62,960 bases of DNA. Source: a virus (Duplodnaviria > Heunggongvirae > Uroviricota > Caudoviricetes). Positions 3,545 to 58,625 of the stretch are shown in pieces (position 1 is the stretch's first letter; each line of letters starts with the position of its first letter). Both the position numbers and the translations under genes were made by a program. The notes under the pieces are model-generated. The model saw only the letters and a program-made list of their open reading frames with translations, was not told the origin of the DNA and ran no database searches. The stretch spans positions 1 through 62,960 of the IMG/VR virus record IMGVR_UViG_3300021255_000060; one strand, written 5' to 3'.

Positions 3545-4213
3545 ATGGAAATAAGTCAAATGGCGTCTGCAATTTGAAATGATATAGAAGCAGGATTAAG
3601 CAATATGAATGCAAATCCTAATCTATCTCTAGAACAACTTGAAGACGAAATCATAGAAAAGCGAGAAGCTATCATTAAAGAGTGGTATCTTAAAGGCCTA
3701 TTAAAGCCCCATGACTTAATGTTAGCTATTAATTGTGTAAAAGTGGATTGTTCTGATCCCGCTAAATGTTGTATTACTCCTTCTGGTAAATCAGAAATGC
3801 ATTTTGAAATTCCCGTTTTATTAAATGATTTGGGATATGATGCAATAGAGTGAATTGGAAGTGCAGATAGAGGTGAGAGATACGATGTATACTATAGTCC
3901 AGATGCTTTAAAATATAGAAAGTATAAGAGACATGGTGCAGACAAACCTTACGTGTATATAGAAAAAGCTCCAAATAAAAATGGAATGTATGATGGTTGG
4001 GTATTTAATGTACCATTTGCTAAAATAATTTCAGTTATAGGTGTTTTTAAAGATCCAAGACAATTAGAACAATTTAACTGCTGTGACGCTCATAATTATT
4101 TGGAGTTAGGTTCCGTATCAGATGAAATTAAAAGAAGATTAACTGAGCAAAAATTACGTTATTATAGAGGTGCTAATGCTCAGGTCCTACCTAATACACA
4201 AACACCTAGATAA
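3545..4213 (+). CDS. Conserved crAss tail/neck structural protein (TGA=Trp, 2 codons)
   Basis: ATG 3545, MEISQMASAI(W)NDIEAGL..LSLEQLEDEIIEKREAIIKEW. Track ORFs 3605-3853 and 3953-4213 share one frame and are separated only by TGA. Ends TAA. Confidence 0.8.
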
Positions 4214-4905
4214 TGGCTTTACATAATTTTAATGCTGCTTATGGATTGGCAGATTCCTTATATGGAATTACTTTAAGTGAAACGGAATTTGAAGATATTG
4301 CTTTAAATGGTTGATCGCTAATTGGAAACAAGCACACTCGATTATATAGATATATCGGAAATGTAGTTGATGGCAAATTAGATTTACCATGTAATGTAGA
4401 TGTAATCGAATCTGTTCATGTTCCAATTAATGATGCACAAATGACAAGTAATCAATCTGATATAGGATTTGTTGATTCTTTGTGAACTGAAAACTATATT
4501 GATTTTTGAAAAAGAAACGAAGATCCTTATTGAACAAGAGGAAAGTATGTAAAATATGATGAAGGTAATGGTGTGTTGTACTTCAGTCATAATTACAAAC
4601 ACGTGATGGTTGTCTATCATGGTATTTTGGCAGATAATGAAACAGGACTACCTTTGTTAAATGATAAAGAACTAAGAGCTGTTGCTGCATATGTTGCATA
4701 TGTTTCTTTGTACAAAGAAGGGATTCGCAAAAGAGATGGAAATCTAATTCAGTTAGCCCAAACAATTAAAGCCGATTGATTACAATTGTGTAATTCTGCA
4801 AGAATTCCAGAACAATTTAGTCAAAATGATATGGATAGAATACTTGATGTTAAGGTTAGATGGGATAGAAAAGCCTATGGTAAAAGCCTAAAGCCAATTT
4901 TATAA
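4213..4905 (+). CDS. Tail tubular/ring protein (Ttub-like; TGA=Trp, 5 codons)
   Basis: TAATG-coupled start. MALHNFNAAYGLADSLYGI..IALNG(W)SLIGNKHTRLYRY and C-terminal QNDMDRILDVKVRWDRKAYGK match recalled crAss Ttub. Ends TAA 4903-4905. Confidence 0.8.
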
Positions 4906-5348
4906 TGCATTACAAAACTGGATATTGTTTTACTCCTAAAGATTTATTTGAAACAATGAATCTTAGAGTACTTGGTATAAAAAGAGATTATTATAGAGGA
5001 GAAGGGAAATCAGAGGGTCTTACATATTTTGTATGTAAGGTTTTTCTCTATTATATGTATTTGGTTTTAATGGACATTATAGAAAATAATGTAACCTTTT
5101 GCTTACCATTAAAAGGTAATAGATCTGCAAGTATTTATGTAAAAGTATTTGATGGAGACGATTTTCAAAAGTTATATTCTGCTGGTAAATTCACCGGAAT
5201 TGATTTTTTAAATTCAATGTTTAAAGGATATCAAATATTTTATAGATATAATTGTAAAAGTGGGGATAAAGAAAAACCAATCTACATAAACAACAAGTTG
5301 AAAGATAAATTTTATAGCTACATAAACGAAGGAAAGATTTATTATTAA
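4905..5348 (+). CDS. Conserved crAss protein (IHF-like by synteny)
   Basis: 147 aa ORF with TAATG coupling on both sides. Occupies the position of the crAss IHF-like pair between Ttub and Tstab. Confidence 0.55.
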   Translation: MHYKTGYCFTPKDLFETMNLRVLGIKRDYYRGEGKSEGLTYFVCKVFLYYMYLVLMDIIENNVTFCLPLKGNRSASIYVKVFDGDDFQKLYSAGKFTGIDFLNSMFKGYQIFYRYNCKSGDKEKPIYINNKLKDKFYSYINEGKIYY

Positions 5349-5944
5349 TGGAGTTAGTTACGTGTGAAAAATATTACGAAAAAGTAAAAGAGAGATTCCC
5401 AGGTTTAACATATGGACAAATAGATAGAATTGTTAAACATGGCTTATTGTCTTATTATATGGTTAATGCTTATGGTGGTGATGTACTATTTAAACACCCA
5501 AAATACACAATGTATACTGGAAGATTGTTTAAAAACAAACTATCTTTCTATAAGTATTGACGATTAAAATGAAAAATTAAACTTCGTATAAAATACTATC
5601 GTAATAAAACTAAATTTGACGGATATTATTATTTTGGAATGAACGAAGATGAATTTAAAAACTATCAATCTCAATTCAAGAAAAAGGTTGGCAAAAGAAG
5701 AACTAAAATTAAACTTGATAATGTTTTTATGTATAAAATATTAGATGAAGCCATCCTTGATCATTCCAAAAAATATTTTTTTAAAATTGCATATCCTGAA
5801 GATTGTGGATTCATAATGAATAAAAAGGAGTATGTGGCTAGAGATATACAATATATATTAAAAAGAAATAAAGACAATTCAATAGAACCTGTAAGTTATG
5901 AGCAAACAAACAGCAACAAATACGTGAAACGACGGATTAAATAA
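5348..5944 (+). CDS. Conserved basic crAss protein (second IHF-like gene; TGA=Trp, 2 codons)
   Basis: Track ORFs 5348-5560 and 5639-5944 are in one frame, joined by YKY(W)RLK(W)KIKLRIKY. Ends TAA. Confidence 0.65.
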
Positions 5945-8900
5945 AGATTTAAATCCAGTTATTACTCCAAATACAGTTCTTACAGATAATTTGAATGGAA
6001 CTTTTATTACATATAATGGAAACGAATTTTCTCTGCAGAACGATATGGGTAATATTGGACCTATAAATCTATCAAAAGGATTTTTTCCTATTGGACTTAC
6101 AGAGTTCGGAGACATTATATATATTATATCAATTAACGAGAATTCTGGAGAATTTGAAATCGGTTCTTTTCCAGCTCTTCCAGATGATGCATTGGAAGAG
6201 GTTGCAACTGATTTAATTCAAGAGTATCGCCCTTTTAAAAATTTAATCAAATCTAAAAGTTCAGTAAAGTTTAGAACACTTGCTTTATCTGGATATGATA
6301 GAAAGCATCCAGTTTCTATAGAAGTTCAACCTTCATATGATGGTTCTGTTAATCTAATATTTACAGATAATCAAAATGTTCCAAGACTAATTAATTCTGG
6401 TTTTGCTGTATTAAAAAATGGGCAGGGAAAGCGAATAAAAAGAAATCAAGGAACAAAAACTAATTATTATGAAGAATCTAAACTAGAATGAACAAGTAGA
6501 TTGATTAACAACACGCCTAATTTTACAAATGTAGATTTAAATGAAGTTGCTGCTGGTGGACAATTAAAAGGTGGGAATTATACATTTTATGTACAATTTG
6601 GAGATGAGGACGGAAATAAAACAGACATTGTTTGTGAATCTGGGATAGTTTCTGTATTTAAAGGTACTGTTGGAAAACCAAATACCATATCTGGCACTTT
6701 ACAGGACGAATTAACCGATAAGTTAATATCGTTAAAAATAAATGATTGCGATACTAATTTTTCTAGAATATATCTATCTTATACTAGAGAGTATTGTGAT
6801 CAATTAGGCTATAGACTAGTTGAAGCAAAAACGTTTACAGAACCATATAAACTTGATTCTACAGAAGAAACAATAATTATTTCTGGTGTTGAATCTGTAC
6901 AACCTATATCAATAGAAGAACTTAATATTGGATATCATACCGTTTCTTCTGTTAAAGCTATGGCTCAACAACAAAATATGTTGTTTTTAGGAAATATTAC
7001 TTCTGAACAACCAAACAGTGCAAAATTACAATATTTAAGTTATCAAGTTAATGTAGGTGTATCTCAATCAGATACTGTTGGATATATTGATAGTTCTACA
7101 TATGAAAGTAATAATGGTGGAGAATATTACAATCCACAAAACATATATTATAAATTAGGATATTGACCAGACGAGTTATATCGACTTGGTATAGTTTATA
7201 TCAATCAAGATGGTACAACTACCGATGTATACAATCTAAAAGGATGTGTATTATCAATTAATGATGAAGGTTCAGATTATAACAATGATGAAACACATAC
7301 GCAAGTTATTGATGAAAACGTATCAAATTTGGATGATTCTGGTGTATTTTTAAAAAATACAACAAAACAAGATAATATTTTTGGTGTGTTTAAGACTCCA
7401 GATTTAAATATTTTACGTACTGGTAATATTTATCCTATATCATTTTGAGTTAATATTCCTTTAGATGTACAAACAGAGTTATCTTCAATGGGTATATCTG
7501 GATATTTCATCGTTAGACAAAAACGCATTCCGTTAACTTTATGCCAAGGATTTAGTGTAAATATTGCAAAACATTCTTATATTCCCGTTTTAACTTTGGA
7601 TTCAGGAGAGTCTATTACACAAGGGTTTTTATCAGATATAGAACAATTAGAAAACACATTACAATATAAAGAGTTTTCTCAAAATACAGAAGCTTTTACT
7701 CCAAGTGAAGAAAGTTTAAAACTATGCTATCTTTTTAGAGAAAGTAAAAAATACACTAATAATTGAGCAATCAAAAGTACTTGATGAAGATTTAAGGTAT
7801 ACACAATGGATTCAAATGGATATGATCAATGCGTTTTTACATCTAGTTGAAAGGATAAACAATCTAATGCTAGAGAACAAGCAGAAGATTATGTAGATAG
7901 TAAAAATTTAGTTTATGTCAATCCAGACGATCATGTGTTTGATACAACAAATTATTTTAGGAATATTGTTTTAAAACAAGTTGGTACTAAAGAGTTGTTT
8001 AATAAAATAGCTGTTACAGAAATGCAAAACAATTCTTCTGGGTTAATTTGCGTTGATGCTATGTTAAATCCTGAAACTCAATCTACTTTATGTGGAACAG
8101 AATTTAAATTAGTAAAGAGTAACGCTTGTAAATTAATTCAGAATGGATTAATGTTTTTATCTAACGAATATGAAACACCACAAAAAACGAGTGTAAAAGC
8201 AAAATTAACATATATTCCTAGTAATAATCCGCTTAAATGAATTGAAAACGTTGGATTTAGTACACAACAAGGTAGTGCAGAAAATATTAGATCTTTTGGT
8301 TCGGTTAACAATACTGTAAAAGACGAAGATGCAAAAATATCTCAAGGGGAAAGACTAAATTTTGTTAGAGGCTTATATTGTCCGTATATTGCAACAGTAT
8401 TAAAAGACAAATTAACTCCAAATACAATATACAGCATTCGTTCTAATGATTTGAGTTCTAATTATACAAATGAAATTGTTGCAAGAAGTAATAATTCATC
8501 TGAATATTATGTTATTACAAATAAGACAAAACTCAATTTTGGAATAGATACTATTTATCGTGGAGACTGTTTTTCTAATACCGTTACAGTTAGAATTATT
8601 AGAAATTTTATTGATCCTAATGTTCCTGTTGCAGATAAAATTGTCTCTCCAGATTCTTGAAAAGAAAATTATAAAGGTTTTGACAATACTGGAGATGGAG
8701 ACGATAAAACACAATGAAATAAAATTAACTTGTCTGATGTAAATACAGTTTCATTAGGACACTGGTTGACATATAAATGTCTATCTAACTACAATCTTGG
8801 ATTACGTTCTGAAGACACATTCCATACAGATGAAATGGCATTAATGGGGAACTCAAGAAGTTTTTATCCTTTAATCGGAGCGTCTACTGCAACATCTATG

Positions 8901-10337
8901 AAAGTACCAGAATCCGAATTATTAAATAATGGATATTCTGCAACAGTAAGTAGAAGAAGAAACATCTTACATCAAAATACTCCATATGAAAAGAATGAGT
9001 TTTCTAATAGGGTTATGTTTTCAAATGTAAACGTTACTGATTCTTTTACAAATGGATATAGAACATTCCAAGGATTATCTTATCAAGATTACACTAAGCA
9101 ATTTGGATCAATTATTAAATTAGTTCCTTGAGGAAATCATTTGTTCTGCGTTTTTGAACATGGTTTAGCAATGCTTCCAGTAAATGAAAAGGCATTAATG
9201 CAAACCACTACAGAACAAACAATTCATATATATGGACACGGTGTACTTCCAGAACAATTATCTATAATTTCCCAAGATTTTGGTAGTTTGTGAGCAGATT
9301 CTGTTATAAGAACGCCGATTGGTATTTATGGAGTTGATACAGATGCTAAGAAAATATGACGATACACAGATAAAAATGGATTAGAAACCTTATCTGATAT
9401 GAAATTACAGCGGTTTTTAAATGACCGTATAAACTTAAAATTAAATCGTCAAGAATATCTTGGATATACAAATGTAAAAACCCATTATAATAATTATAAA
9501 GGCGATGTAATGTTTACATTTTATCATGAAGATGAAGTTTGGAATCTTTGTTATAATGAACGACAAAATTTATGAATTACGAGATATGATTGAATTCCAC
9601 TTCATTCTGGAAATATAAATAATCGTTTTTACACACTGCCTCTTATAAAATCTGTAGATCAAACTTCAGAAATTGGTATTTGGAAACACGGTAGAATTGG
9701 AATTGATTATAATTTCAAACCCACTAATTGATATGGAGAACAACATCCATTTGAAATAGAATTTGTAGTAAATGATCCACAAGGTATACACAAAATATTT
9801 GAAAATTTAGTAATAATTTCAAATAATGTGCAACCTAAAGAATTAGAGTTTGAATTTGTTGGTGATTCTTATTTGTTTAACAAAGCAAGAATTTATCACG
9901 ACTATCATGGAAACTCAAAACAAATATACGGTAATATTGGTACAGACACTCCATATGATTATCAAACAAATTACTATTCTAAAGACGATTATATTCAACC
10001 TGATTTATCACCATTGTTCTATAATGCAGATATTGGATATGATCCGGTATTAGATGAATATACGTTAATTGTAAATCAACCTTGTAAAAATGTTGAAACA
10101 TATGGTAGAAGGTTGGGAAATATTCAGTATAAAGAGGATGGCTGATATACAAATATTGAACCACTTAGATTTAATAAAAAATTAAAAGATTATGATGCTG
10201 AAACATTCTCTAATAAAGATGAATTTGTCTCTACGAAGTTAAGAGATAAATGAGTTAAAATTAGAGTTAAATATAAGGGAGATCAATTAGCAATCATTAA
10301 TGCAATATCTACACTTGAAAATATAAGTTATGCCTAA
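5898..10337 (+). CDS. Tail stabilisation / muzzle protein (Tstab-like, ~1479 aa; ~19 TGA=Trp)
   Basis: ATG 5898, MSKQTATNT(W)NDGLNKDLNP..NGTFITYNGNEFSLQNDMGN. One frame with only TGA interruptions to TAA 10335-10337. Motifs YYKLGY(W)PDELYRLGIVYI, FGSL(W)ADS, KKI(W)R, PTN(W)YGEQHPFEIEFVV, RDK(W)VKIRVKY. Confidence 0.9.
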
Positions 10338-11598
10338 CACAGAACCATTAAGAAGCACGGCAAATGGTGCCGCTGGTGTAAGAAATAAAACTCCGATTGC
10401 AGGTCTTGATCCTAGAAGTTTTTTACAAAAAACAGCACAAAAACAATTAAGTGATCAGATTCGATTAAATGGTCAGCTTGCTAAAAGGCCTGATTCAGAA
10501 CCTGCTGGTATAGATGCAAGTGAAACTGCACAAGGTGGTAATTTTTCTTCATTTATGAATGGAGCAGGAAAATATGCAGCAAAAGGTATTGGTGCAGTTG
10601 GAAGTGCAATGTCATCAATGAATGATACGGTTAGTGAACAGTCATTAGCAATGCGTAATGGTATTTCAGATGCGGCAATTAATTCTGGAAATCCTATTGC
10701 TATGGCAATTGGTGCAGCTGCGAAAGTTGTGGATGCTATTGGTGATGCTACTGGTTTTCACATTGATGATCTTGATAAGGATGCAGCTAAAGATGCTGGA
10801 GTATCTGGTGGAGCAGCATTCTTAAATAATGCAATGAACGCATTACCTGGTAATAGTTTATTAATGGCTGCATTTTCTCCTGGAAAAACCAAAGAATCTA
10901 AATCTCTTAGTGAAGAAGGTGAAGCAATCGAATCTGGATATACTGGTGTTGCATCAGACATACAATCTGCAGGAAAATTATCTGGAAAACGCACTCTGTT
11001 TGGAATTGGAAGAAATAAAATCAATAGGTTCATTGATGATACTAATAGAAAAGTTGATTTAATGAATGAAATTGGACATACTAATGCACTTAGAAAATCA
11101 TCTAATTATGGTGTTGATTTAGCACAACAAAATTTAAATCGTTATGCTGGAACTAATTATATGATGAATGCTGTTGGAAGAAACGGAATGAAATTAATTG
11201 ATTTAGATACAGCAAGATACATATTAGAAAAAAGGAAAAGTGTAGAAAAATTCCAAAAAGGTGGTACTATTGGAATAGATACAAATGTTCTTCCAGAAGG
11301 TAGTTTACATGCAAGATTAAATCATTTATCTGATATAAATCCAGATCTCGAAGAAGCTACTAAAAAAGGTATTCCTGTAATGGCTGGTGAACAAGGGGGA
11401 GAACTATCTCAAGTTGCAGAAATAGAACATTCTGAATTAATTCTTAGATTAGAAGTAACACAGAAAATTGAAGAATTAATGAAAGATGGGTCTGATGAAG
11501 CAATGATTGAGGCTGGAAAACTTTTATGCACAGAAATTATTGATAATACGCAAGATAATATGGGACAAATAACAGAGGAGGTGGAAGATGGCAAGTAA
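10330..11598 (+). CDS. Virion cargo protein (crAss cargo C1-like), Ala/Gly-rich
   Basis: 422 aa. C-terminal NVLPEGSLHARLNHL..TKKGIPV..QVAEIEHSELILR as in crAss proteins downstream of Tstab. Contains KFQKGG. Confidence 0.65.
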   Translation: MPNTEPLRSTANGAAGVRNKTPIAGLDPRSFLQKTAQKQLSDQIRLNGQLAKRPDSEPAGIDASETAQGGNFSSFMNGAGKYAAKGIGAVGSAMSSMNDTVSEQSLAMRNGISDAAINSGNPIAMAIGAAAKVVDAIGDATGFHIDDLDKDAAKDAGVSGGAAFLNNAMNALPGNSLLMAAFSPGKTKESKSLSEEGEAIESGYTGVASDIQSAGKLSGKRTLFGIGRNKINRFIDDTNRKVDLMNEIGHTNALRKSSNYGVDLAQQNLNRYAGTNYMMNAVGRNGMKLIDLDTARYILEKRKSVEKFQKGGTIGIDTNVLPEGSLHARLNHLSDINPDLEEATKKGIPVMAGEQGGELSQVAEIEHSELILRLEVTQKIEELMKDGSDEAMIEAGKLLCTEIIDNTQDNMGQITEEVEDGK

Positions 11599-12607
11599 AG
11601 CAAATTTAAATATAGCTTTGGCTATTTTATATGATTTAACTAATAATCCATCAAATAAAGCTGGATCTACTGCTGCAATTGCAGAAGCCAATATAAAAAG
11701 AGATGGATTGGATAAAAACGACATCAATGAAATTGCTGCAAATTCCACTCTTGATCAAATTGCAACACCAATAGAAAAAGTGCAATTTAATTTTGGCAGT
11801 AACCCAGGATTAATAAAGGATATTTCTGATTGGGCTGGATTTGATGTAACTCCTGTTATTTATAAAGGTTCTGTGCAAGACATAAGAGAAATGTTATCTG
11901 AATATCTACAAGCAAATAATGTAGATATTCCAAAGATAAACTCTTTTGGAGAAGGTGGGCAATTTGAGTCCAATTTAGATGTAGTAAACGTTAAAATCGG
12001 AAATAAAACATATAAATTATTATATCTATTGTCCGAAGAACAAAAAGAAACCGGATTAAAGAATGTTGAAGATATGGAGTCTGATGAAGGCGCATTATTT
12101 GATTATTCTGATAATCCACAAGAACATCTATCTTTTTGGATGAAAGATACTACTATTGGATTAAAAATTCTTTTTGTAAATAAAGACGGAGTTGTTATAT
12201 CTGTTCATAAAGGAAAACCATTATCGGAAGAACTAATAATAGAAGAATCTGAACCAATTTATTGAGTTATAGAAATAAATGATTCTGAAGATGTAACACA
12301 AGGGACTTATACAAATCTTGCATTATATAAAGAATCCGATGCTGAAGTAGAAGAGGAAGAGTCCGATGAAGACGAGCATCCAGAAATAAAAGTAAAAAAC
12401 CTGTACATCTATGGTTCAGATGGACAGGTTCAAGCAACACTCCAAGGTGGAGAAAGAATTTTTAGTCGTAAAGCAACTAAAACAATTATTAAGAAGGCTA
12501 AACGTGCATATCTTTCACATTTAGACAAAGATTATAAATCACTTGGTAGATATGTGTTTAATGAAATTAAAGCACAAGATAATAGACCTGCAGAATATAC
12601 AGAATAA
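11588..12607 (+). CDS. DUF192-domain protein (1 TGA=Trp)
   Basis: ETGLKNVEDMESDEGALFDY..SFWMKDTTIGLKILFVNKDGVVISVHKGKP is a DUF192 signature. The frame continues past TGA 12263 to TAA 12605-12607 (LQGGERIFSRKAT..LGRYVF). Confidence 0.75.
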
Positions 12608-12609
12608 TT

Positions 12610-13005
12610 ATGAATGATTTAAAAGTTATATATAACAAAATAATTGAGGGTAAAGGAGGAAGTGATTTTCCTTATGAATATGAAATAGTCCCTGATTTTA
12701 GTATAACCATTAATCCAGAAGATTGGATTGTTAATAGTGGTGAAACCAAAGTAATCGAATCCAGGTCTGTATTTACACTTGGTGATTGAGATTATAGAAT
12801 TTGGAAATGTAATGACGTTGAAACGTTTAATACATCTGAAGCTAATGTAGTTGTTCATAAAGGTAGCGATTATTACACTGTCAATGTGGCTATTTTTAGT
12901 AACGAAATACGTTTTAGAATTAATGCAGAAATTAATCCCAATAATATGGGTACTGTCGTATTTAATTTTACAAAACTAATAGCTATTGGAAACGACAAAC
13001 AATAA
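12610..13005 (+). CDS. Hypothetical protein, 131 aa (1 TGA=Trp); not in the ORF track
   Basis: ATG 12610, MNDLKVIYNKIIEGKGG..FTLGD(W)DYRIWK.., ending TAA 13003-13005. Starts 2 nt after the previous stop. Confidence 0.6.
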
Positions 13006-13648: not shown

Positions 13649-16600
13649 ATGAGTCAAGTTAAAAAATTTCAAACTGGTGGTAGTCTTACAATTGATGGAA
13701 AGAAATATGATGTTACCCCAGAACTAATACAGAATTTATCTGGATATTTATCTAGCTATGGAGATACAGCTGCACCACTTGCAGGGTTAACCTCTGCCTT
13801 ACAACGTGGTGCAAATGTGGTATATGATTCCGTCGGAAACACCATTACTGGAATGGATGGACAGTGAGCTGGAGTTGACGAGAAAGGTGAATCTAAATAT
13901 GATGCAAATCGTAGCCAATGAAGAAAAAATTGAGATGCCACATTTAATAATGACGCACATAAGTGAAGAAAGTCATTACGGCTTTTATCTGGTTTTGCTG
14001 GATATGGCTTAAGTGGAAACAATCCACAAACTGATGCATTAGATAACATTTTTGGCAATGAAACATGGTTTGATTATATAACCAATGAAGATGGAACAAA
14101 AACATATTCTAAAGATTCAGCTAAGAACGCTTTAATTAAACAACGTCTAGAGAAATGGTCAAAGGGTCTTCCAATGACAGAAGAAGATTTTAAAAAGACT
14201 TATTCTCTTGATAGTTGGTATACACCAGATAAAGTTGCTGGTATTCGAGCTATATATGGAAATTATGCTACTCCAGAACAATGGCAAGCGAGAATTGCGG
14301 AAATTGAAGAACGTGCTCAAAATAATACATTAAGACCAGAAGATAAACAACTTCTTGCTGCATTTAATATTGTTGAAGGCGCAAATCCAAATGCTGCTAC
14401 AGATGCAGAAGCAAATAAAAATAAAAAACGTTTTACTGACGCAGGGTTTGACTATGATAAATGAAGCCCATATCTTACATGAAATGATGCTGGATATTTT
14501 AACTTAAATGATGATGCACTGGAAGAATTTCATGGAGCATTTGGAGGAAATGGTAATTATTGGTTTAATGATGCTTTTCAAAATTCTGCAAAATATAATC
14601 CTACTGGGCAATGAGATTTCCTAAATGGACATTTTGTGCTTGGTAATAGAATCTATAAACAATCTGATGCATCTGATCCAATGTCAGATTTAAGTAAAAT
14701 ATTACGCAGACAAGGTGGATTTAGAGACTTAAATGCTGCTATGCAACACAATGCTGCAAATGACTTAATTGAGCAATTATGAGGAAATGAAGTTGGATGA
14801 AATGCTCCTGATGGAAAATATTATAGCAATTGACTTGATCCTAATGGTAATCGTTATTATCGCGCAGTTACTGGAGAGTATAATTGAACTGGTAAAAATG
14901 GAAATCAGCAACTGATTAGTTGAGTTGATGCGAACCCAGAATTAGCTGATGAATTTGGTTATTATAATCCTCATTTTCAAATAACAGACGAATGGGGCAA
15001 TAGAGATTTAAGTGCACCAGAAATGGAAACTGTTCCAGGATTAGTTAAATTAGGAAAGAAAGATGTTAAACCATCAAAATTTGATCGTAGAGAACTTTAT
15101 TTTTCAGATTCTGGAAACTCTGAATTTGATGGTAGATATATTGTTGGAGACGCTGTTGACGAAGACGGCAAAGTTACTGGAGCAGCATTTTGAATAAATC
15201 CTAATAATCCTAATGCTGAATGATTGTTTGAATCATCTAAATTAAACGACTATGTTGAGGGAATGGAAGGAAACGCAGTTAGAATTCCAAAATCAATGTC
15301 TAATATATTAGCGCAAAATCCTCAATTTATGACTGTATTTCAAAATAATCCGGAGTTGAGAGATAGATTTGTTAGATTAATTGCAGGTTCTATTGCTAGT
15401 GCATGAAACGCTGGTGTTGAAAATAGTACCGTAACTGCTAAAGAATGAGAATCGTTTGGTTTTACTAAAGAACAAGCGGCTCAATTAGCAAAAGAGTCTG
15501 ATAAATTATCTGAAAGAAAACGATTGTTTGCTAGACCAAGAACAATAAGACGTCAAGAAAGAGTTGTATCTAAACCGCAACTTCATAAAACTGGAGGAAA
15601 AGTACAGAAAGCTGCAATGGGCGATATGCTTGGAAGTAAAAATGACGTTGGTGCTGCAGTAACTCAAATAAAAACGGATAAACCAATTAAAGATACTGCA
15701 CATTTCAAAAATATTGGTGACGGCGAAAAAATGCAAAAGGAAGATTGGTGAGAACTTGGTGCTTTAGTTGGGGACGCTGCTTCTTTAGGACTCGCATTTG
15801 TTCCAGGTGCAGGGGCATTATCTGGTATTGCTGGTATTGCTGGATCTACAGCAGGATTTAAAGCTGATGTTAAGAGAGATGGTTTTCAAATGGGAGATCT
15901 TGGAAACTATTTACTTAATATTGGATTGGATTCTACAGCATTTATTGGTGCCGGTGGTTTAGGTAAGACTGCTAAAGTTCTTAGAAGTCTCAAACGATCT
16001 GGAAAAGTAATAAATAAAATAATGAAAGCCGCTGCCGTATATGGTATTAGTAATGCAGCAGTTGATTCATGAAAAAAGATTCAAAATGGAGAAGGTTGAA
16101 GCATTCGTGACGTTAGAAATGTAGTAAACGCTCTCGGTGGAGCAGTTCATATGTCTAGAACTGGAATTAAAAAACCAGTTAAAGGTAAAAATTCAGTTGA
16201 ATATCCAACCATTAATTTAAAAGACGGTAAACAAGGTAACTCTATACAATTATCTGAATCTGAATTTAATGCAATACAAGCTGGAAATCCAAAAGATAAA
16301 GGAGAACTAGCTGAGATTTTAGCTGGGATTCAGAACAAACGTAGACCTGCAAATACACCAGAAATTACTAAAGAACAAATCATTGATAATTATGATTTAG
16401 ATGAATTTGTAAAAACTAGAAAACGTTTTGGTTTATTTGGTAAAGATGTATTTAAAATAAAAGGATTGGATGCAAAGAAAAAGAAAGGAAAATGGTCTTG
16501 AGAACTAATTGGTAAAGATCCTACTAAAAAACAAGCAAGAGAAGATTATCTTGCAATACTTAATGGACAACGTAGAGTTAAAAATCCTTCAAAAACAATT

Positions 16601-18211
16601 ACGGAGACAGTTACTGAAATGGTCCCACAAGGACATTGAGAACCACAATATAAGACTGTTCGTGATGTTTTAGGCGAGCCGCAAGCAAATGTTACAACTG
16701 CAGGACCAAATGGAATATATGTTCCAAACAACAATGTTCCTGCAATTCCTATAGACAGACGCATTATAATTAATGAAGCAGATAAAGCTCTTCCAGTAGT
16801 AATGACACCTCGTACTAGGACAATAACCAGAACGATTCCTGCTACATATAGGCGTCTTCCTAGAATAGTACCTACTACATCTGGCATTATATATTCTCCA
16901 TATGAAGAAGATCATATTGGATTTGGTGGAATGAAACAATATAATACTGAACAATCTCCTGCACAAGTTGTTCCCTATGTTTCAACTAGATATACTGCAT
17001 ATAATCCTTATTGAGTTGGAATTAATCAGCCAATGTTTAAAAAAGGTGGAAAAATTAAAAAGGCTCTATATGGTGCAGAATTAGATCAGGATTATCTAGA
17101 TTTACTGACAAAACAATCTGTTGTAAATGCAGAACGTTTTAGAGACGGAAAAGGAGTAGAATCACCTCAAATAAGTACAAAGGCAAGTACAAAATTAAAT
17201 GAAGTTTTAGATCCCCAAGTACGTTTAAATGCTTCACGTAAACTAAGTGATCCAATAAAGACTTTAATTGAAACAAGAGATCAACAAAATGCAATGGATG
17301 TTAAGACTCGTTTTGAAGGTACGCCAGAAGGTAAATCTTATAGTTTTGATCCTACACCTATAATAAATACAATTGGCTATTTTGATGCAAAGCGTCTTGG
17401 TGACGAACAGGAAGATAACTGACTTAACCGAGACAGACTTCAGATAGACGAATTTTTGTTAAATGCTCCAAGATACACCAATTCTGGTGCTGGTGATGCA
17501 TATCAAAATTTGGCGAATTCACAACGATTCCATAAGAATGTTACTTCAGATCCTACCGAAAATTGAGGAGAACAACAACAGCAATTACAAACTGCATTAC
17601 AAAGTGAATTACAAGGAAATCTTGCAAATTCTCAAGAATTTGGTAAATATATTGGAGGATTGGCAGAGTTTCTTAATAAGAATGCTCTTAAACGTACAGA
17701 TATTGCTAATCAAAATAAACAATATAGAGTTGCAGAAAATCAAGCAGATCAAATTCAAAAGAATACAAATATTGCAGAAGACTCTAAACGTCGTGATAGT
17801 CTAAGATATAGCTGAAATGATTGGATAAATAGAAAACTACAAGCAAAGAAAACTATTGATGCTTTACAAGATCAACAGGGCTCTTATCAGATTCTAGATA
17901 ATCTTCAGCGTAATAAAATGAATGAATGAACTCAGAAATATCCTACACAAGAAGATCAATCTAAACCACAAGCTCAAATGGAATTGACTTGAATTAAAAA
18001 TTTTGTTCAAAGTCAAAAAAATAGTATTGATAAACGTGTTGGGGCAATGATGATGGCAAATGGTGGTAAAGCTTCTAAAGTAACTTATTCTAGAGATCCA
18101 TATCCTGAATTGCTAATTCAAAATGCAAAAGATTCAACAAAACTTGTAGAAAAATTGAATGATTCTACAATTAAACTTTTATTATCAATAAAACCAATAC
18201 ATGTATCTTAA
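13649..18211 (+). CDS. Large virion cargo/ejection protein (~1520 aa; ~27 TGA=Trp)
   Basis: Eight track ORFs in the same frame are linked by TGA only, from MSQVKKFQTGG to TAA 18209-18211. Contains a Gly/Ala hydrophobic segment (LGALVGDAASLGLAFVPGAGALSGIAGIAG) and C-terminal YSRDPYPELLIQNAKD. Confidence 0.85.
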
Positions 18212-43200: not shown

Positions 43201-44865
43201 AGAAAATATTCTGTAGATACTTTTGAAACAAGTCTTGATACAGTTTTCTTAAAAACTATGGCATCGGCTCTCCGTGCAAGAGTTAGTGAGGAATTTATGC
43301 CATTGTTTACTGGAATGCGTGCAATTCTTGCGTTTAATAATAATGTAAATGGCGCAGAGGTTCCCGGTATTACAAAAGCGTTAGATGATTTTATTAAATC
43401 CGCTGTTTTTGGGAAACTTATTATTGAACCGTCCAATCAAACATTATATCATATAATAGGTGTACTTAGAGCCATTACATCTACAACTGCACTAGCCTTT
43501 AATTCTGTCTCTTTTACACGAGAAATGTTGACATCTGCTATTAGAACTAGTATCAATAAGGAAATAGATCCTATTATGAAAGGACAATTCTCTCAGGCAG
43601 ATTACGTCTCTGCGATGTTTGATATTATTGAAAAAGCACCGCAGAATTTAGATGTTAGAAGTAAATATATGCAATTAAATTTCATATATGGTTTAGCTAA
43701 TGCCTCTGAAGAACACTTAGCAAACGCATCTAAATCTAATTGAGCCAATATTGCTAATTGAACAGATGACATTCTTTTCTGAACATCTACTTCTCCAGAT
43801 TTTGTTCATAGAAATGGAATTTTAACAGCGGTTCTTAAACATCGTGGTTCTTGGGACGCATATTATCTAAATGAAGATAATGAGCTTGTATATGATATGA
43901 GCAAAGATAAATTCTATGAAGTTTTCTGAAAGTATAAAGATCGGTATTCTGAAATAATGAATGATAAAATCAAACTTCAATTTAAAGAACAGGAACAGTA
44001 TTACATCAATGCACTTAATGACTGAAATAGAAGTTATGGAATGAATTTAAAGTATGGCGATGAACTTCCACAAGCACTATCTCCTCAAGAAGCGAACGGT
44101 ATAAGAGTTTACGCGGATCACTTATATGGTAACTATGATAGAAACACTAAGTCACTTTTACAAAAAAGCTTGCTTGGTTCTATAGTATTACAATTTAAAA
44201 CTTATACACTTCAACAATTCTTACAAAATGTTAGAGATACTGGCCACATTAATGTAACAAAACAAATTCATCGTAAATCTGATGATGGAGAAAAACTTTA
44301 TTGGAAGGTATCTACAACAATGGAGGATTTTCAAGAACATGGGGCTGGACAAATTCTTAAAGAATCTGAATTAGAAGGAGTTGATATGACAAATGTTGTT
44401 CCATATGTAGAACTCATGGGTAGTCCAACTGGTGGAAAAATTGCTACAGATGTAGAAATGGCTAAAGACATCTTATTTAATCATGATAAATTCCTTGAAA
44501 ACTGAAAAAATCAGGTATATAGAGCTAATTTATACATGTCTCTTATAGATAATCTTGGGATGCTTATTATGGCAATGCTTCTTAGACTTATGTATGGTGA
44601 GGACACGATTAAAGATATTAAGTCTGAAGATTGGTGAACAAGATGAACCTATACTGTTTTAATGGGCGTTGCCCAAGATGGACCAATTGATCAAGTAATC
44701 AATGGCATTATTGGCAATGGTACACCACCTTCAATAGCAACATTACAATCTTTTTATAGAAACGCTTACAACGTTATAACTGGCAATGACTCTGCTATCT
44801 ATGGATTTATGAATTCGTTTGGTGCTACAAGACAATTTACTGGTATGTTTAATAACGTTAGATAA
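40213..44865 (+). CDS. Large virion cargo protein with PD-(D/E)xK nuclease-like domain (~1550 aa; ~20 TGA=Trp)
   Basis: One frame to TAA 44863-44865. GFLDIVV..TFDVK..QQMAY (41023-41175) and PDFVHRNGILTAVLKHRGSWDAY. Confidence 0.8.
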
Positions 44866-45192: not shown

Positions 45193-45415
45193 CGTTCATT
45201 ATTTCTATAACTCGTTGTATAGGAAATGTAGAAAATTTATTTCCTGCATCTACCCAATCTCTTGTTTCTTGTAATAAAATCTTTACATGGTTATCCCATT
45301 TATCTGGCATCGTAGCATTAATAAAAATCATTAAACTTACAGAACATAACATTCCAAGGTAAAAAATACCTGCAGCAATTAATGCTATGAATATAATCCA
45401 AAGTACTGTATACAT
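45182..45415 (-). CDS. Small membrane protein
   Basis: 77 aa with a hydrophobic N-terminal helix (VLWIIFIALIAAGIFYLGMLCSVSLMIFI). Confidence 0.55.
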   Translation of the reverse strand: MYTVLWIIFIALIAAGIFYLGMLCSVSLMIFINATMPDKWDNHVKILLQETRDWVDAGNKFSTFPIQRVIEIMNDDS

Positions 45416-46107
45416 TTGTTTATTTTATTAAATAAGTCTTTTAAGTCTCCATTATTGGTAATTATATAATTAAAAGCATCTTCGTTTAAGAGATCAATCA
45501 CTTCTCTTTCTGAAGAATGTGTTCCAGGCTGTGTTCCAGGACGGTCAATGTATATTGTAATACCTTTACGTTTTTTGATTTCTTCTAATTCTACTCTAAA
45601 CCGTAAATCAGATATAATTAATTTTTCTCTTGTATTTATAGTACAATTTATCCAAAGTTTATCACTTAAGAATTTTCTAAGTACATTGGTTCCACAATAT
45701 TGCATTAATTGTCTTACAGATATCCAATAATCAGATGGGATTGGTTCTCCAGATTTAATATATTTATTAAATTGATTATCAGTTAATGTTTTATCAGGTA
45801 AAGCAATTCCGTTTGTGTAAAGTTCTTGTAATGTATCTAATTGTACATAACAATTTTCTTTGAAGTTTCTGCTTTCAAAAGTTTCTGGTCTAACTTTTAA
45901 TATGATAGCAAGGACTTCTTTTAAAGGTTTAGCAAATGAAGTGATTTTCCACTTCTTGCTAAACCTTATTTTTCTTTTATATCACCAATAAGTTCTAAAA
46001 GGTTTAGGAGTATTTAAAAGATATTCAAACATTGCAGCAGCTTCAGTTTTGCCACTATTCTTTAAACCACCAACTGCTATGATATTAGTTTGTAATGTAG
46101 ATCCCAT
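45385..46107 (-). CDS. Deoxynucleoside monophosphate kinase (1 TGA=Trp)
   Basis: ATG 46107, IIAVGGLKNSGKT P-loop, SFAKPLKE, SVRQLMQYCGT, ISDLRF. In-frame TGA at 45984-45982. Ends TAG. Confidence 0.85.
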
Positions 46108-51437: not shown

Positions 51438-51441
51438 AAAT

Positions 51442-52529: not shown

Positions 52530-52547
52530 AATTGTTTTATTTTAAAG

Positions 52548-53729
52548 TTAATCTAAATCCTTCTCCCAACGAACACTTCTAAAAGATGGGAGATTTGGAA
52601 CAGGATGCTCTGTATTAGTCATACCAAAGTATTTTACAGTTCCCATCTGTCCAATTATTTCATCCAAATGGTTTCTATATCATTCTTTTAGTGCTCTATC
52701 ACCAATAGGTTTTGCTTTAAATTGAGTACCATCTGGCATCTCCATTACAAAACACATGTCTTCATCACGTAAACCTTCTGCAAGTCCAACTATCTTAAAT
52801 TCTGCATCATTAAAGATTTTTATTTTCATCATTCGATTGTCTCTTGCTCCAGGTTTATACTCTTTTTCTGGATCTCTTACAACTAATCCTTCATATCCTT
52901 TAGAGATGGCTTCATCATGCATTTGCATGATTTGGTCCAATCCTTTCACAGGTCTATGTTCCACGAATACAATTCTGGAGTCAGATGGTCTATCTTTTGC
53001 AAGTTCTCCAAGTTTTTTCGCTCTGAGCTTAAATGGAGTTTGTGTATCAACGATATCATAACAATGAAATACAAGTTCTTTATGCGCATCTACAAGTTCT
53101 TCACGTCTGCATAGTCCACTAATTGTTTGAAGATTTCAGAAATGTCGATATATTTCACCATCTAGAATCATTCCAGGATTCTCTGTAAGAATCTGAATAA
53201 CATATGGATCTTCTCGAATATATGTTGCAGGAATATCATAATCTTGACCACCTCTAGAAGAAGTATGAACTTCACCATCATGCATAAACAACAAACAACG
53301 TACACCGTCATGTTTATAACTTGCCAATCATTGCTTATCTGTCTGTGATGACTTGTCTCTATCCATAACTTTACATAGTTGAGGTTTAATTACTCCATTT
53401 TGATCTGTGTTGTCAATAGGAAGTGCGTTTTCTGCAGACTCTAAAGTGAGTTCTTCTATACCAAGGTCTTTAATGTTTTTATATCCTTTATCAAGATATT
53501 TTTTAAGTTCACTATTATATTGTAAAATACCTTGTTCGGTAACAGTTCTTGAAGCTTTACCTCTGTGAATCTCTATTACTGGAGCTATAACTTGTTTACC
53601 ATCTAATAAGCCACTTGATCTTTCAATTACATATGCGTGTAAATCGTCAGATCAACTAAGGGAAATATCGACTCTACGAATTTTTCCCTTAGCGTCTCTG
53701 CATATAAGTGTGTCTTGTGCTTTAGCCAT
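52548..53729 (-). CDS. ATP-dependent DNA ligase (393 aa; 4 TGA=Trp)
   Basis: ATG 53729 coupled to the dUTPase stop. Q(W)LASYKHDGVRC (KxDGxR), LDGEIY, YEGLVVR, MMKIK. Track fragments 53136-53327 and 52680-52964 are in frame. Ends TAA 52550-52548. Confidence 0.92.
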
Positions 53730-54602: not shown

Positions 54603-54801
54603 TTTTCTTTACATATAATGTACAATGACATGTGTCGCTCTCTCTATACTCAAGGCAAGGACACATTCTATCTTCTCTTGTTTTCCCTGGGTTTACACAA
54701 GGACACTCTCCACCGTTTATTTCACAACGCTTCAAAATAGCATTAACCACTTTATCGTTAGGATTTAAATCCCAGCCTTCTTTTCTAAGAATTTGAATCA
54801 T
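54583..54801 (-). CDS. Ferredoxin-thioredoxin reductase catalytic-chain-like protein (72 aa)
   Basis: Start chosen at ATG 54801. GWDLNPNDKVVNAILKRCEINGGECPC..RMCPC..TCHCTLY gives the CPC/CPC/CHC FTR pattern. Confidence 0.75.
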   Translation of the reverse strand: MIQILRKEGWDLNPNDKVVNAILKRCEINGGECPCVNPGKTREDRMCPCLEYRESDTCHCTLYVKKNVDTDS

Positions 54802-55258
54802 TTTTCCAAAATTTATAGGTAATATCTTGAAATTTATTTTCAGAGTCTCTGCAATAGAATTTCTGATTTGTAGTTTTCTTATTAATTGGACCACATTCTT
54901 CTTTATATGGGCCAATTTTAATATAATTCAAACAATCTGGAACGTCCTCTGGTATGGAAGATCTTCCTGTATACCATGCTATTTTTAAATGTTTAAAAAG
55001 CATTGGTATAAATTTAAATAGATTATATAGTTCTTCCAAGTCAGAATCTCCACCCATAAAACAAATACAAGTAATACCATCGTTTTTATTTACCAAATCT
55101 ATTAATTTTCCCACACTCAATCACTCTCCAATATCTTCTCAAAGTTCTTTACTGTGACAACCTGGACAATGGTATGGACAATTTGATATATCTATACATA
55201 ACGTAACTTCATCAGGAACTTCTGAAAAAGTCACCAAACTATCAGTATATTTTAACAT
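54785..55258 (-). CDS. nrdG: Anaerobic ribonucleotide reductase activating protein (radical SAM; 2 TGA=Trp)
   Basis: FSEVPDEVTLCIDISNCPYHCPGCHSKEL(W)EDIGE(W)L, CICFMGGD, IAWYTG, IKIGPY. Adjacent to nrdD. Confidence 0.92.
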
Positions 55259-57405
55259 TTTAAATTATTTGCTGGATGATAAATCCTAGTTAACGCTTCT
55301 TTATATCGTTCTTTATCAAACTTTGGTACCGGTCGCAAATAACCAATAATTCTTGTTCAGTCTGTAGTTTCTTTACTTCCACATTTTGGACAAATATCAA
55401 AATGATGTTTTTCTATATGTCCACATTTATCACATTGACAATTTGGAATGTTAAATGTAAAATAAGAACACCCTACTTTGATGGCATAACCAATCAAATA
55501 TTCATATTGTTTTTGCGAAAGATGTTCACTAAGATTACAATGTAATCCAACTCCTCCATCAAGAGTACCAGTGAATTCACGTCCATGTAGTTTAAATCTA
55601 TCAAGAATAGAGGTATCTGGATCAGAAGCAAGATAAAAATAAGAGTTGTAGAGATTTCTGTTAGAAGGAACCCAATAACCATCCTCTTTATCTCAGTTAT
55701 AGTTCTTAGACGACAAACTCTCAGCAGGAACAAATTCTGTATTAAATTGATATTTACTTGTAGAATTTTTACGATTTAATTCAGAGATTGTGCTAGTTAT
55801 TAATTGACAGAACTTCTTATAATCATCATTATATGAACATTTAAGTCCGAGAAATTCTGCTGCTTCATTAATTCCGTTTAATCCAACAGTAGAATAGAGT
55901 TTAGACATTGTTATATATCCAGCCTTACTTGCTGTAAACATTCCATTTGCTTCTCATTCATATAACATTGTTTTATATGCAATATGATATTTGTGAACTC
56001 TTTCTACTACCTCTGTTAATAGATTTTTAATTCTTACATATGGAGGAATACTAGAATCAAATTCGGGTCCTCTACACGCATCTTGAGTTAATCGATTAAG
56101 ATTAATTGTAATTACATTACATGAACCAGTCTGAACTCCAGTTAAACCATTAGTGAATGAGAAAACATTCTCATTAATTTGATTACGTAAACGACAGCAT
56201 GATGCTAAACTATCAGGATTATCTGAAAGATATGTAAAGAAACTATGCCCGGCTGCATACATTTCTGTAGTAAGATCCTTATATGCTTTATCAATGACAT
56301 CTTCTCCATTTGTAAGCAAGGCCATTGTTTCTACAGGAAATGTTAACAATGTTTCACTTCTAGCATTATTGAATCAATGAATAAATAATCTTTGAAGATA
56401 ATCTATTCTTCTCCATTTAGGTTGTGTTCCATCAGGAAAATAAAAATCATCAAATAATGCATGCCAATAGTTTTCATCGTAATAAGAAATATTAGTAAAT
56501 GGTGATTGAGCTCCTCTGTTACCTGCGGGTTGATTTCAATTAAATACAACGTGTTGGAACTGTTGTTTGATTTTATCCTCAATAGTATCAGGATGATCAA
56601 ACAATTCTGGATTATCAACAAATGTATCTTTCTTTAAATCATAATCTTCACCATAGTCTTTAGCTGCATAATAATCGAAAAAATTAAAGAATTCTCCGAA
56701 TGCTACTGCACCTTTACATTGTGATGCAAGTAAAAATGTAGCATTCACAAGTTGTCCACAGAAAGAATCTAAGTGTTTTGGTGCTTTAGTACTTGTTCCA
56801 TCTAGTGTACCAGTTCCATTTAGCAAAGGATAAAGTGTAACTGCCTCACAATAATTTTTTATTACAGGAGTAGACGCTTCATCATGTGTATAAATTAAAT
56901 GACTTTCTAAGTCCTTTAAATATTGATCCGCCAATTCTTTTCCGTATAATTTTTCAATGGAATCATATGTCATAATCCTTTGTGTTTTACGATTTTGTGG
57001 TTTATATACTTCTGATTCCATATTTGCAACATTCTTCAAATTCATATTTGCATTTGGATCTGTTGCACTTGATGTTGCCGCATTCTCTCCATTTAATTGA
57101 TAATCCTTCATATATTTGATGTGTTCACGAAGAATTCTTTCTTCAGTATGTTTGTCTCTGTAAACAATATATGCTCTAGCAACATCATACCATTTATGCT
57201 CCATTAAAGATTTTTCGACAAAATCTTGAATCTCTTCAACTGTTTTATCTTCTTTAAATGTGAAACAAAGAGTCTCCAGATAATTTATAAGACTGTCTGG
57301 AGCATCAGTCTGTTCAACCGCTTTAAATGCTTTGTTTACAGCATTTTTAATTTTTTGAAAGTCAAACGGTTCAACACTTCCGTTACGTTTAATGACATTT
57401 ATCAT
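55252..57405 (-). CDS. nrdD: Anaerobic ribonucleoside-triphosphate reductase, class III (717 aa; 5 TGA=Trp)
   Basis: ATP-cone VIKRNGSVEPFD, LTFPVET, LASCCRL, KNYN(W)DKEDGY, Zn-site CxxC motifs, and glycyl-radical D(W)TRIIGYLRP. Ends TAA 55254-55252. Confidence 0.95.
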
Positions 57406-57406
57406 A

Positions 57407-58174
57407 TTACTTCAATAGATTAAATAAAGAGTCTACAAGTAAAGTCTTTTCATACTTTGCCATAATATCTTTATTATCATCAGTAATGATTTGAGTAAAT
57501 GCATTATAATAGTTAAATACACTACATTCTTCTGTATCTTTTACATAATATGGAGATCTGGAATCCATATATACCATTTGAAAAGCTTTTACACACATTG
57601 CACTAGAAATTTTTGCTTTACCTCCACTATTATTCCATTCTAGTGTCATTGCTTTTTCAATTTGCTCTCCAAGTACACGATGTACTGAATCTGGATCTCT
57701 ATCCAAGAATGTGTTTTTCATATTCTTTAATCTGACTTCGAGATCATTCGTTTGTTCCATCAAATTTCGAATAGAATATTTAAAGTTTTCTCCTGGTTGA
57801 AGTTCTTCAACCTTAAGCCAGTCTGGGTTAAATACGCATAGGTTTGTGCATGCACGATTAAGAGAACCTCTATAGACTTTATATACTGGGGTTCTTACAT
57901 CCAATCCATATAAAAGACTATATACTTCATCGTGATTATCAATACAATATTTATCCGGCATTACTGCCTGAATCCAGACTCTATTATAAGTCATATCCTC
58001 ATCACCATCAGTTAATGTAATTTGATCTGGCGTCTGGACATTTACTATAAACTTATCTGTAAATTTTGACATTTCGTCAAAGAATGGCTGAACATAATCA
58101 GCCGTGGGAAGATATTCTTTTCCCTTTATAATTGTAGGTTTGCCTTTAAGCAGCAATTCCGGTGTAATTTCCAT
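57407..58174 (-). CDS. Conserved crAss-like hypothetical protein
   Basis: 255 aa intact ORF. LLKGKPTIIKGKEYLPTADYVQPF..TYNRVWIQAV is recalled as conserved in crAss replication regions. Confidence 0.65.
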   Translation of the reverse strand: MEITPELLLKGKPTIIKGKEYLPTADYVQPFFDEMSKFTDKFIVNVQTPDQITLTDGDEDMTYNRVWIQAVMPDKYCIDNHDEVYSLLYGLDVRTPVYKVYRGSLNRACTNLCVFNPDWLKVEELQPGENFKYSIRNLMEQTNDLEVRLKNMKNTFLDRDPDSVHRVLGEQIEKAMTLEWNNSGGKAKISSAMCVKAFQMVYMDSRSPYYVKDTEECSVFNYYNAFTQIITDDNKDIMAKYEKTLLVDSLFNLLK

Positions 58175-58625
58175 TTATATAAACATTAATCATTCTTTCA
58201 TACTTTCTCTCACGTCTTTTATTTATGAGAGAAACTCCATCTCAATCTTGACCAATTTTAGATAACGGTTGTTTTGCATTTAATATTAGAAGAGCCTCTA
58301 TTATATGTGCTTCAGTCTTTGTTAAACCCATTGCGAATATTCTACAAGTTCATCCTGGGCCAATTGCTTTTGCTAAATTATCATTTCTATGATTAAATGG
58401 TCTAGATTTTTTTCATTCTGTCATTTTATGGGAAGTTAAATCATAATATCTTCCCATACCATAATAACAAGCGATTTTCATTTGATTTTCGAAGATATAT
58501 ACACAATATCCTCTATCAGATGATTCTTCTCTTGTTTTAAATATTTTTGTTACGTCTATTGTTCGATTAAGATCGACAGCATATCCCGCCGTAAATGGGT
58601 GTAATATCGGTAATTTAACCTGCAT
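58146..58625 (-). CDS. GIY-YIG nuclease-family protein (159 aa; 3 TGA=Trp)
   Basis: ATG 58625. GYCVYIF..CYYGMGR..H..MGLTKTEAHIIEALLI..LINKRRE. The frame continues through three TGAs to TAA 58148-58146. Confidence 0.7.

Follow-up and report, generated by a model that had tools for sequence, protein, structure and literature searches.

The DNA analyzed here, the first 62,960 nucleotides (nt) of IMG/VR virus record IMGVR_UViG_3300021255_000060 (hereafter the window), raises the question of how its genes are translated. Between positions 3545 and 58625, dozens of short open reading frames (ORFs) follow one another in single frames, separated only by TGA, and a first-pass annotation proposed that the opal codon TGA has been reassigned here from stop to tryptophan. 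We followed up this proposal by computational analysis of the whole 167,986-nt (168 kb) contig of which the window comprises bases 1 to 62,960. The reading that fits the data best, and in which we have high confidence, is that UGA is reassigned to tryptophan by the phage itself, through its own transfer RNA (tRNA), tRNA-Trp(UCA), in a host that uses the standard genetic code.

We compared the ORFs obtained under the standard code (table 11) with those obtained when TGA is read through (table 4). Under table 11 only short ORFs are found over 3.5-45 kb, whereas table 4 restores long ones. The table-4 ORF table lists 16 window genes with in-frame TGA, lying between 3545 and 58658 and comprising 14,681 codons (44,091 nt), the longest two of which encode proteins of 3446 and 3247 amino acids (aa). 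In frame, these genes hold 128 TGA and 74 TGG codons and not a single TAA or TAG, and they terminate in TAA (13 genes) or TAG (three genes). These counts agree closely with the first-pass annotation, which had reported 16 genes of up to 3446 aa ending in TAA or TAG, roughly 125 in-frame TGA codons counted by hand, and about 45 kb of genes that would be lost under standard annotation. The two other frames of the same 16 genes contain 492 and 977 TAA codons and 278 and 329 TAG codons, respectively. Because these other frames are full of TAA and TAG, while the reading frame is without any, the open frames cannot be due to chance. Across the whole genome, greedy ORFs cover 0.752 of the sequence with table 11 and 0.937 with table 4, and coding density is not improved by reading TAG or TAA as sense. 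Genome-wide there are 382 in-frame TGA sites, and TGA is carried by 79 of the 155 ORFs of at least 80 aa, or about half of them (the table-4 ORF set is built in such a way that every one of the 155 ends in TAA or TAG). The highest loads are 27 TGA codons in a window gene (13649-18211) and 29 in a gene elsewhere in the genome (138014-145975). Table 11 shreds 44 kb of the window, including three genes of 1,500-3,400 aa among the 16, and table 4 is required for annotating this genome and for cataloguing its proteins. These frames are opened in exactly the same way by table 25, in which TGA encodes glycine as it does in Absconditabacteria, Gracilibacteria and their phages, and such phages exist in gut and oral metagenomes (bioRxiv 10.1101/2021.08.26.457843).

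The genome has the features of a crAss-like phage. The first 100 nt of the contig are found again near its end, constituting a terminal direct repeat of about 100 nt, and the database record places it in the direct terminal repeats class with a completeness estimate of 100%. Its guanine-plus-cytosine (GC) content is 29-36%. Within the window, Pfam searches identified crAss_MUZ (129.8 bits), NrdD, an NrdG-like activase, an ATP-dependent DNA ligase and a deoxynucleoside monophosphate (dNMP) kinase; matches to CrAss_Ring_1 and CrAss_Ring_2 scored about 23 bits, under the cut-off. Syntenic relatives give Crass_capsid, ring and muzzle matches, and the virion module as a whole is of the crAss type (capsid, ring proteins and muzzle protein). 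Judged by its genes for NrdD and the muzzle protein, its closest GenBank relatives comprise crAss-like phages of the human gut together with two unannotated "Bacteriophage sp." scaffolds, and the muzzle protein has 1836 homologues on contigs of up to ~178 kb. Zeta group crAss-like phages have genomes of 145-192 kb (PMC7886860), a range that includes the 167,986 nt found here. By its size, gene content and nearest homologues, the genome fits the Zeta group of crAss-like phages.

To read the amino acid at each site from relatives, table-4 ORFs were translated with X at every TGA, so that the search carried no bias toward tryptophan, and were compared by tblastn with the DNA of relatives; the subject codon opposite each TGA was then read, with the TGG sites of the same genes serving as the control. 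Two of the relatives do not use TGA as a sense codon: MT835470, a standard-code genome (density 0.968 with table 11), and MT835492, which is TAG-recoded (density 0.574 under table 11 and 0.933 under table 15). Both are unannotated GenBank scaffolds from Mexican faecal samples, related to the present phage and different from each other in code, and ARAGORN found no suppressor tRNA in MT835492 although that genome needs TAG as sense. Opposite TGA, tryptophan is the commonest residue in both, as the first-pass annotation had anticipated: 22 of 103 sites in MT835470, followed by phenylalanine (12) and tyrosine (10), and 24 of 81 sites in MT835492, followed by tyrosine (11), leucine (9) and phenylalanine (7). 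Given a tryptophan background of 1.1-1.2% in the aligned columns, this is an enrichment of approximately 20-fold. At the TGG control sites the ranking is the same, with tryptophan ahead of tyrosine and phenylalanine. Likewise, when BLOSUM62 scores are summed over 172 cells, tryptophan scores +338, tyrosine +164 and phenylalanine +84, and all other residues are negative, cysteine reaching -294 and glycine -375. For a glycine code these values are unfavorable, and glycine is not among the 12 commonest residues opposite TGA in either comparator despite a background of 5-6%.

Individual conserved sites give a similar picture. Both MT835470 and MT835492 have TGG at seven of the muzzle gene's TGA sites, including those in the motifs G-Y-W-P and K-K-I-W-R. 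In NrdD, for which the comparators were seven standard-code phages (five crAss-like phages, Citrobacter phage Ci1 and Vibrio phage Va1), site 571 in the motif N-W-D-K-E-D-G-Y is TGG in 7/7, and sites 344 and 683 face tryptophan, phenylalanine or tyrosine in most of the seven. The four NrdD sites that could be aligned with solved structures lie opposite L, W, R and Y; the solved structures of NrdG and ligase are too distant for the TGA sites of those two proteins to be judged. The first-pass annotation had cited motifs in all four of these proteins. Those in NrdD (W-D-K-E-D-G-Y) and in the muzzle protein stand, whereas the other two hold in part: at the ligase motif W-x-x-S-x-K-x-D-G one of the two relatives has W and the second has Y, and NrdG site 40, in the proposed L-W-E-D motif, is W in Vibrio phage Va1 only, the crAss-like comparators having A, S or T. 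The first-pass annotation is corrected on this last site, where tryptophan does not occur in the nearest relatives. Taken together, these comparisons show TGA to be a sense codon, one that by its alignment stands where tryptophan stands.

Six closer relatives (L001 and L012-L016) are themselves TGA-recoded, and their DNA was used to examine how TGA and TGG exchange. Muzzle protein homologues were left out of the residue test, and the relatives' DNA was used instead, because the five relatives checked for this at the DNA level are TGA-recoded and gene callers had written W into their proteins, which would make a protein test circular. In 347 cells opposite window TGA codons, the six relatives have TGA 106 times, TGG 43 times, phenylalanine codons 36 times and tyrosine codons 28 times. 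Among the codons one base away from TGA, the preference for TGG is pronounced (TGG 43 versus GGA 3, TGT 7, AGA 5 and TTA 7). Conversely, opposite window TGG codons the relatives have TGG 72 times and TGA 50 times. From these counts, TGA and TGG interchange freely and act as synonyms, and the ratio of 43 TGG to 3 GGA again speaks against glycine.

The same data bear on the possibility that TGA is not reassigned at all, and that the interrupted frames reflect selenocysteine or cysteine insertion in special contexts, leaky termination with the host's tRNA-Trp, broken genes or assembly errors. We found no special read-through context: the base that follows in-frame TGA is distributed as it is after TGG (p = 0.15), whereas after true stops the next base is T in 46% of genes, and the 382 TGA sites are not marked by any special following base. 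Cysteine is disfavored by its BLOSUM62 sum. Broken genes would be expected to gather TAA and TAG as well, and neither interrupts the 14,681 codons; moreover, assemblies made independently from other samples show these genes again, TGA included. A separate observation is that TGA lies 0-4 codons ahead of the terminal TAA or TAG in 10 ORFs of at least 80 aa, as against roughly 4-5 expected (an estimate from the genome-wide TGA frequency). Examples are found at genome positions 125536-125542, 130325-130330 and 70099-70107, some of them in ATGATAA junctions and none in the window. These may be footprints of former TGA stops that were backed by a nearby TAA.

Reassignment by the phage calls for a tRNA able to read UGA. 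There are no tRNA genes in the window and 18 in the rest of the genome, and one of the latter, at genome positions 79692-79763 on the minus strand, has the anticodon UCA. It is 72 nt long and folds into a clean cloverleaf with a 7-bp acceptor stem and a 4-nt variable loop, scoring 60.1 bits against the general Rfam tRNA model. ARAGORN labels it "tRNA-SeC", which on its face favors selenocysteine insertion without reassignment; this label comes from the anticodon alone, and the length, variable loop, acceptor stem and fit to the general tRNA model are not those of a selenocysteine tRNA. In a phage collection, its only matches are the annotated tRNA-Trp genes (anticodon CCA) of two crassviruses. 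It aligns with both without gaps, the D arm, anticodon stem-loop and T loop being nearly identical; in the anticodon arm the sole change is C34U, and the discriminator base G73 is common to all. A blastn search with this tRNA against E. coli genomes gave no match. Judging from the alignment, one base change in the anticodon of a crassvirus tRNA-Trp clearly gave rise to tRNA(UCA). Bacterial tryptophanyl-tRNA synthetase (TrpRS) recognizes its tRNA mainly by G73 and the anticodon, and UCA suppressors of this kind receive tryptophan. No tRNA-Trp(CCA) is encoded in the genome, and because of this tRNA(UCA) would be expected to read both tryptophan codons. The tryptophan character of tRNA(UCA), together with a separate tRNA-Gly(UCC) in the genome, also bears against glycine, and we regard a glycine code as having a negligible probability. 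A domain search of the genome found neither a release factor nor a TrpRS domain, so that the phage brings no factor of its own against release factor 2 (RF2). The latter would suit an absence of reassignment; even so, given the codon contexts, the intact frames and the kind of tRNA found, we consider it highly improbable that TGA retains its standard meaning here.

Several further observations concern the tRNA genes. The complete TGA-recoded relative G001 (IMG/VR, 166,911 nt) also has a tRNA(UCA), of 93 nt, in which the UCA anticodon arm is followed by a second stem-loop whose loop resembles the CCA anticodon loop of tRNA-Trp (GUCCAAAAC). It looks like a duplication of the anticodon arm, which ARAGORN reads as a long variable arm. 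In the genome studied here, ARAGORN also reported a candidate ochre suppressor, "tRNA-Stop (tta)", at positions 83959-84033 on the minus strand. We rejected it: Infernal places the anticodon loop at CUUUUAA, which makes it a tRNA-Lys(UUU), one that scores 42.6 bits and has weak acceptor and T stems. Upstream of tRNA(UCA), at 79764-79923 on the minus strand, there is a match to a Bacteroidota-type promoter (TTTG-N-TAATTTTG), about 130 nt ahead of the tRNA. This match precedes a ACTTACAA motif and a hairpin that resembles a T arm (GTAGGTTCGAATCCTAC); a small tRNA-like element lies between the promoter match and tRNA(UCA), and a further hairpin lies downstream of the tRNA. tRNA(UCA) seems to share a transcription unit with the tRNA-like element.

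If the recoding is brought by the phage into a standard-code cell, it matters which genes carry TGA. The share of TGA among tryptophan codons is 0.61 in the plus-strand virion block (presumably late), which extends from 112 kb across the contig ends as far as 45 kb, 0.37 in the minus-strand block at 44.9-75 kb, and 0.13 in the tRNA-rich, presumably early block at 75-105 kb. The two strands also differ when only the window is counted, with TGA:TGG at 113:75 for the plus strand and 15:81 for the minus strand (Fisher p = 2e-13). In the table-4 ORF table, the ORFs at 105.5-112.3 kb have 16 TGA and 14 TGG. TGA is thus enriched in the late genes, and the early region can largely be read by the standard code, although neither tendency is absolute and the assignment to early and late expression is a predicted one.

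As for the host, the housekeeping promoter consensus of Bacteroidota is TTTG-N17-21-TAnnTTTG, and these bacteria use the standard code. This consensus has 20 matches in the genome, 10 of them in intergenic DNA, which makes up 6.3% of the genome. Counted against shuffled intergenic sequence over the genome, there are 9 intergenic matches where 0.51 would be expected; the signal in the window alone is weak (8 versus 3.95). These matches point to transcription of tRNA(UCA) by the host polymerase, and the host is probably a standard-code Bacteroidota bacterium. The alternative is that the host itself uses code 4, as Mycoplasma and Spiroplasma do, so that phage and cell would share one code and no switch would occur during infection. 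The genome is AT-rich (29-36% GC), as are code-4 bacteria; TGA is never needed as a stop in the 155 ORFs, within the limits of how that set was built; and Erysipelotrichales (Holdemanella, Faecalibacillus) are predicted hosts of some opal-suppressing Zeta phages (PMC12386605). However, a code-4 host gives no reason for a TGA-poor block (13% at 75-105 kb versus 61% late), nor for a tRNA-Trp(UCA) of the phage's own, and the promoter matches between genes follow a Bacteroidota-type consensus. Relatives of the phage are standard-code or TAG-recoded, indicating a trait borne by the phage rather than by the host, and surveys predict standard-code hosts for code-4 phages (bioRxiv 10.1101/2021.08.26.457843). 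We therefore think it very improbable that the host uses code 4.

Reassignment by the phage's own tRNA would work as follows. The host TrpRS would charge tRNA(UCA) with tryptophan, and the charged tRNA would read UGA, and UGG by wobble. The TGA-poor tRNA-rich and early block could be translated before the suppressor tRNA has built up, whereas the virion genes and some genes of deoxynucleoside triphosphate (dNTP) supply and ligation would be made in full only once tRNA(UCA) is present. The recoding would thereby gate the TGA-rich genes in time, as in the published model. The code of the host, the timing, the charging of the tRNA and the outcompeting of RF2 are the parts of this explanation that we infer. 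The genes with 27 or 29 TGA codons would require suppression to be nearly complete at each site.

A number of points weigh against this reading. Only ~20-30% of the aligned TGA sites face tryptophan in the distant comparators, compared with ~43-45% of TGG sites; with so low a share, many TGA codons must lie at poorly conserved positions, and alignment by itself cannot prove the residue at each site. The meaning of TGA is read from sequence comparison, and the charging of tRNA(UCA) with tryptophan is deduced from its likeness to known tRNAs. The partition of TGA is imperfect in both directions: the virion-block genes at 822-3469 (the three after the capsid gene) and at 10330-11598 lack TGA, and five genes of the replication strand do carry it (those for NrdD, NrdG, the ligase and the dNMP kinase, plus one without an assigned function). 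Finally, with neither a release factor nor TrpRS among its genes, nothing that the genome encodes accounts for an efficient reading of 27-29 UGA codons per mRNA in competition with host RF2. One might suppose an undescribed way of disabling or outcompeting host RF2, and an uneven TGA load in the virion genes that sets protein amounts or timing, but we think this unlikely. With these points taken into account, reassignment of UGA to tryptophan by the phage's own tRNA is still by far the best explanation, being the best fit to the alignments, the BLOSUM62 sums, the exchange of TGA with TGG and the tryptophan-type tRNA(UCA), just as the first-pass annotation had interpreted the codon.

The 16 genes fall into two groups by strand, and PHROGs gave no match for most of the TGA-rich ones. 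On the plus strand, the first is a tail ring protein 2-like gene (3545..4213, 222 aa, 2 TGA, stop TAA; CrAss_Ring_2 at 23.6 bits against a cut-off of 27), whose TGA sites lie opposite Y/H and Y/Y. It is followed by a tail ring protein 1-like gene (4213..4905, 230 aa, 5 TGA, stop TAA; CrAss_Ring_1 at 23.3 bits, also sub-cut-off), with sites opposite W, F, Y, R or L, and by a 198-aa gene with no significant family match (5348..5944, 2 TGA, stop TAA; sites opposite Y/Y and M/L). The gene at 5898..10337 (1479 aa, 19 TGA versus 3 TGG, stop TAA) encodes the crassvirus muzzle protein, as its match to Pfam crAss_MUZ indicates; the name "Tstab" given to it in the first-pass annotation is replaced by this one. 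Downstream are a DUF192-domain gene (11588..12607, 339 aa, 1 TGA opposite F/Y, stop TAA) and a 131-aa gene without a family match (12610..13005, 1 TGA, stop TAA). The most TGA-rich gene of the window, a virion-block gene of 1520 aa (13649..18211, 27 TGA versus 9 TGG, stop TAA), has syntenic counterparts of 1379-1677 aa in five TGA-recoded relatives, and 25 of its TGA sites could be aligned in relative L001. The next gene (18201..20129, 642 aa, 3 TGA, stop TAG) likewise has syntenic counterparts, of 604-655 aa. The TGA load of the virion module is very uneven: the stretch 56-3469, which comprises the end of the capsid gene and the next three genes, and the 422-aa gene at 10330-11598 have no TGA, and the four genes of 56-3469 have 12 TGG, while their neighbors carry 19-27 TGA.

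Three giant plus-strand genes complete this group. The first, located after the tail genes (20122..29865, 3247 aa, 17 TGA, stop TAA), has a weak, sub-threshold helicase-like region (Pfam AAA_30, UvrD_C_2), and relatives hold genes of 2770-3520 aa at the same place. The second (29869..40209, 3446 aa, 16 TGA, stop TAA) matches no Pfam family and can be aligned with MT835470 and MT835492, and the third (40213..44865, 1550 aa, 20 TGA versus 8 TGG, stop TAA) has no family match. All three genes (20122-44865) are in the same reading frame, and at each junction one TAA is followed by one codon and an ATG. Proteins two and three have similar N-termini (MACDV and MGCEV). We considered a read-through fusion of the three and rejected it, as there is no ochre suppressor and an ATG lies two codons past each stop. 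We attribute the shared frame to chance (1 in 9) combined with tight translational coupling.

The remaining five genes are on the minus strand. They encode a dNMP kinase (45385..46107, 240 aa, 1 TGA, stop TAG; Pfam DNMK, 48.3 bits), an ATP-dependent DNA ligase (52548..53729, 393 aa, 4 TGA, stop TAA; Pfam DNA_ligase_A_M, 80.6 bits) with sites opposite W/W, W/Y, R/W and E/Y, an NrdG-like radical-SAM activase (54785..55258, 157 aa, 2 TGA, stop TAG; Pfam Fer4_12, 23.4 bits), the anaerobic ribonucleotide reductase NrdD (55252..57405, 717 aa, 5 TGA, stop TAA; Pfam NRDD, 289.6 bits, plus an ATP-cone) and a 170-aa protein without a family match (58146..58658, 3 TGA and no TGG, stop TAA).

Reassignment of TGA to tryptophan is known from several other systems. 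In Mycoplasma and Spiroplasma the codon has the same meaning, and a tRNA-Trp with U34 reads both UGA and UGG; there, however, a whole cell lacks RF2 and the code is constant, whereas here the tRNA is borne by a virus, host RF2 is presumably present and TGA is partly avoided. Closer are the phages of the Agate and Jade clades (Borges et al., bioRxiv 10.1101/2021.08.26.457843), which infect standard-code hosts and likewise read TGA as tryptophan. They have a suppressor tRNA(TCA), gather TGA in structural and lysis genes, have a low GC content and favor TAA for termination. The Jade phages differ in having a "code-change operon" with genes for RF1 and TrpRS, neither of which occurs here, and the present genome is of the Crassvirales lineage. 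To that same order belong the crAss-like phages that read TAG as glutamine (code 15; Peters et al. 2022, PMC9523058), of which MT835492 is one. They follow the same logic of a phage-encoded suppressor tRNA with another stop codon and another amino acid, and their recoded peptides have been seen by metaproteomics (PMC9523058), whereas the recoding reported here is known from its sequence.

The closest likeness is to the opal-suppressing Zeta phages (Yutin et al. 2021, PMC7886860; Lera and its relatives, PMC12386605), which share with the present phage genomes of 145-192 kb, about 32% GC and ~18 tRNA genes, TGA in structural genes including muzzle and ring, a tRNA with the anticodon TCA, recoding that is mostly late, and near relatives with the standard code or TAG recoding. 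Thus, TGA-to-tryptophan recoding with tRNA(TCA), concentrated in late genes, has been published for Zeta crAss-like phages, as have TGA codons in muzzle and ring genes and the switching of codes between near relatives (PMC7886860; PMC12386605; bioRxiv 10.1101/2021.08.26.457843), which bears out the statement of the first-pass annotation that such recoding had already been reported in crAss-like phages. Phage Lera differs in having a CTA suppressor as well, the present genome having TCA only, and in the proportion of ORFs that contain TGA (~18% reported for Lera, 79/155 ORFs of at least 80 aa here). The phenomenon is real in this genome, matters for its annotation and is already known; the genome is a clear further example of it.

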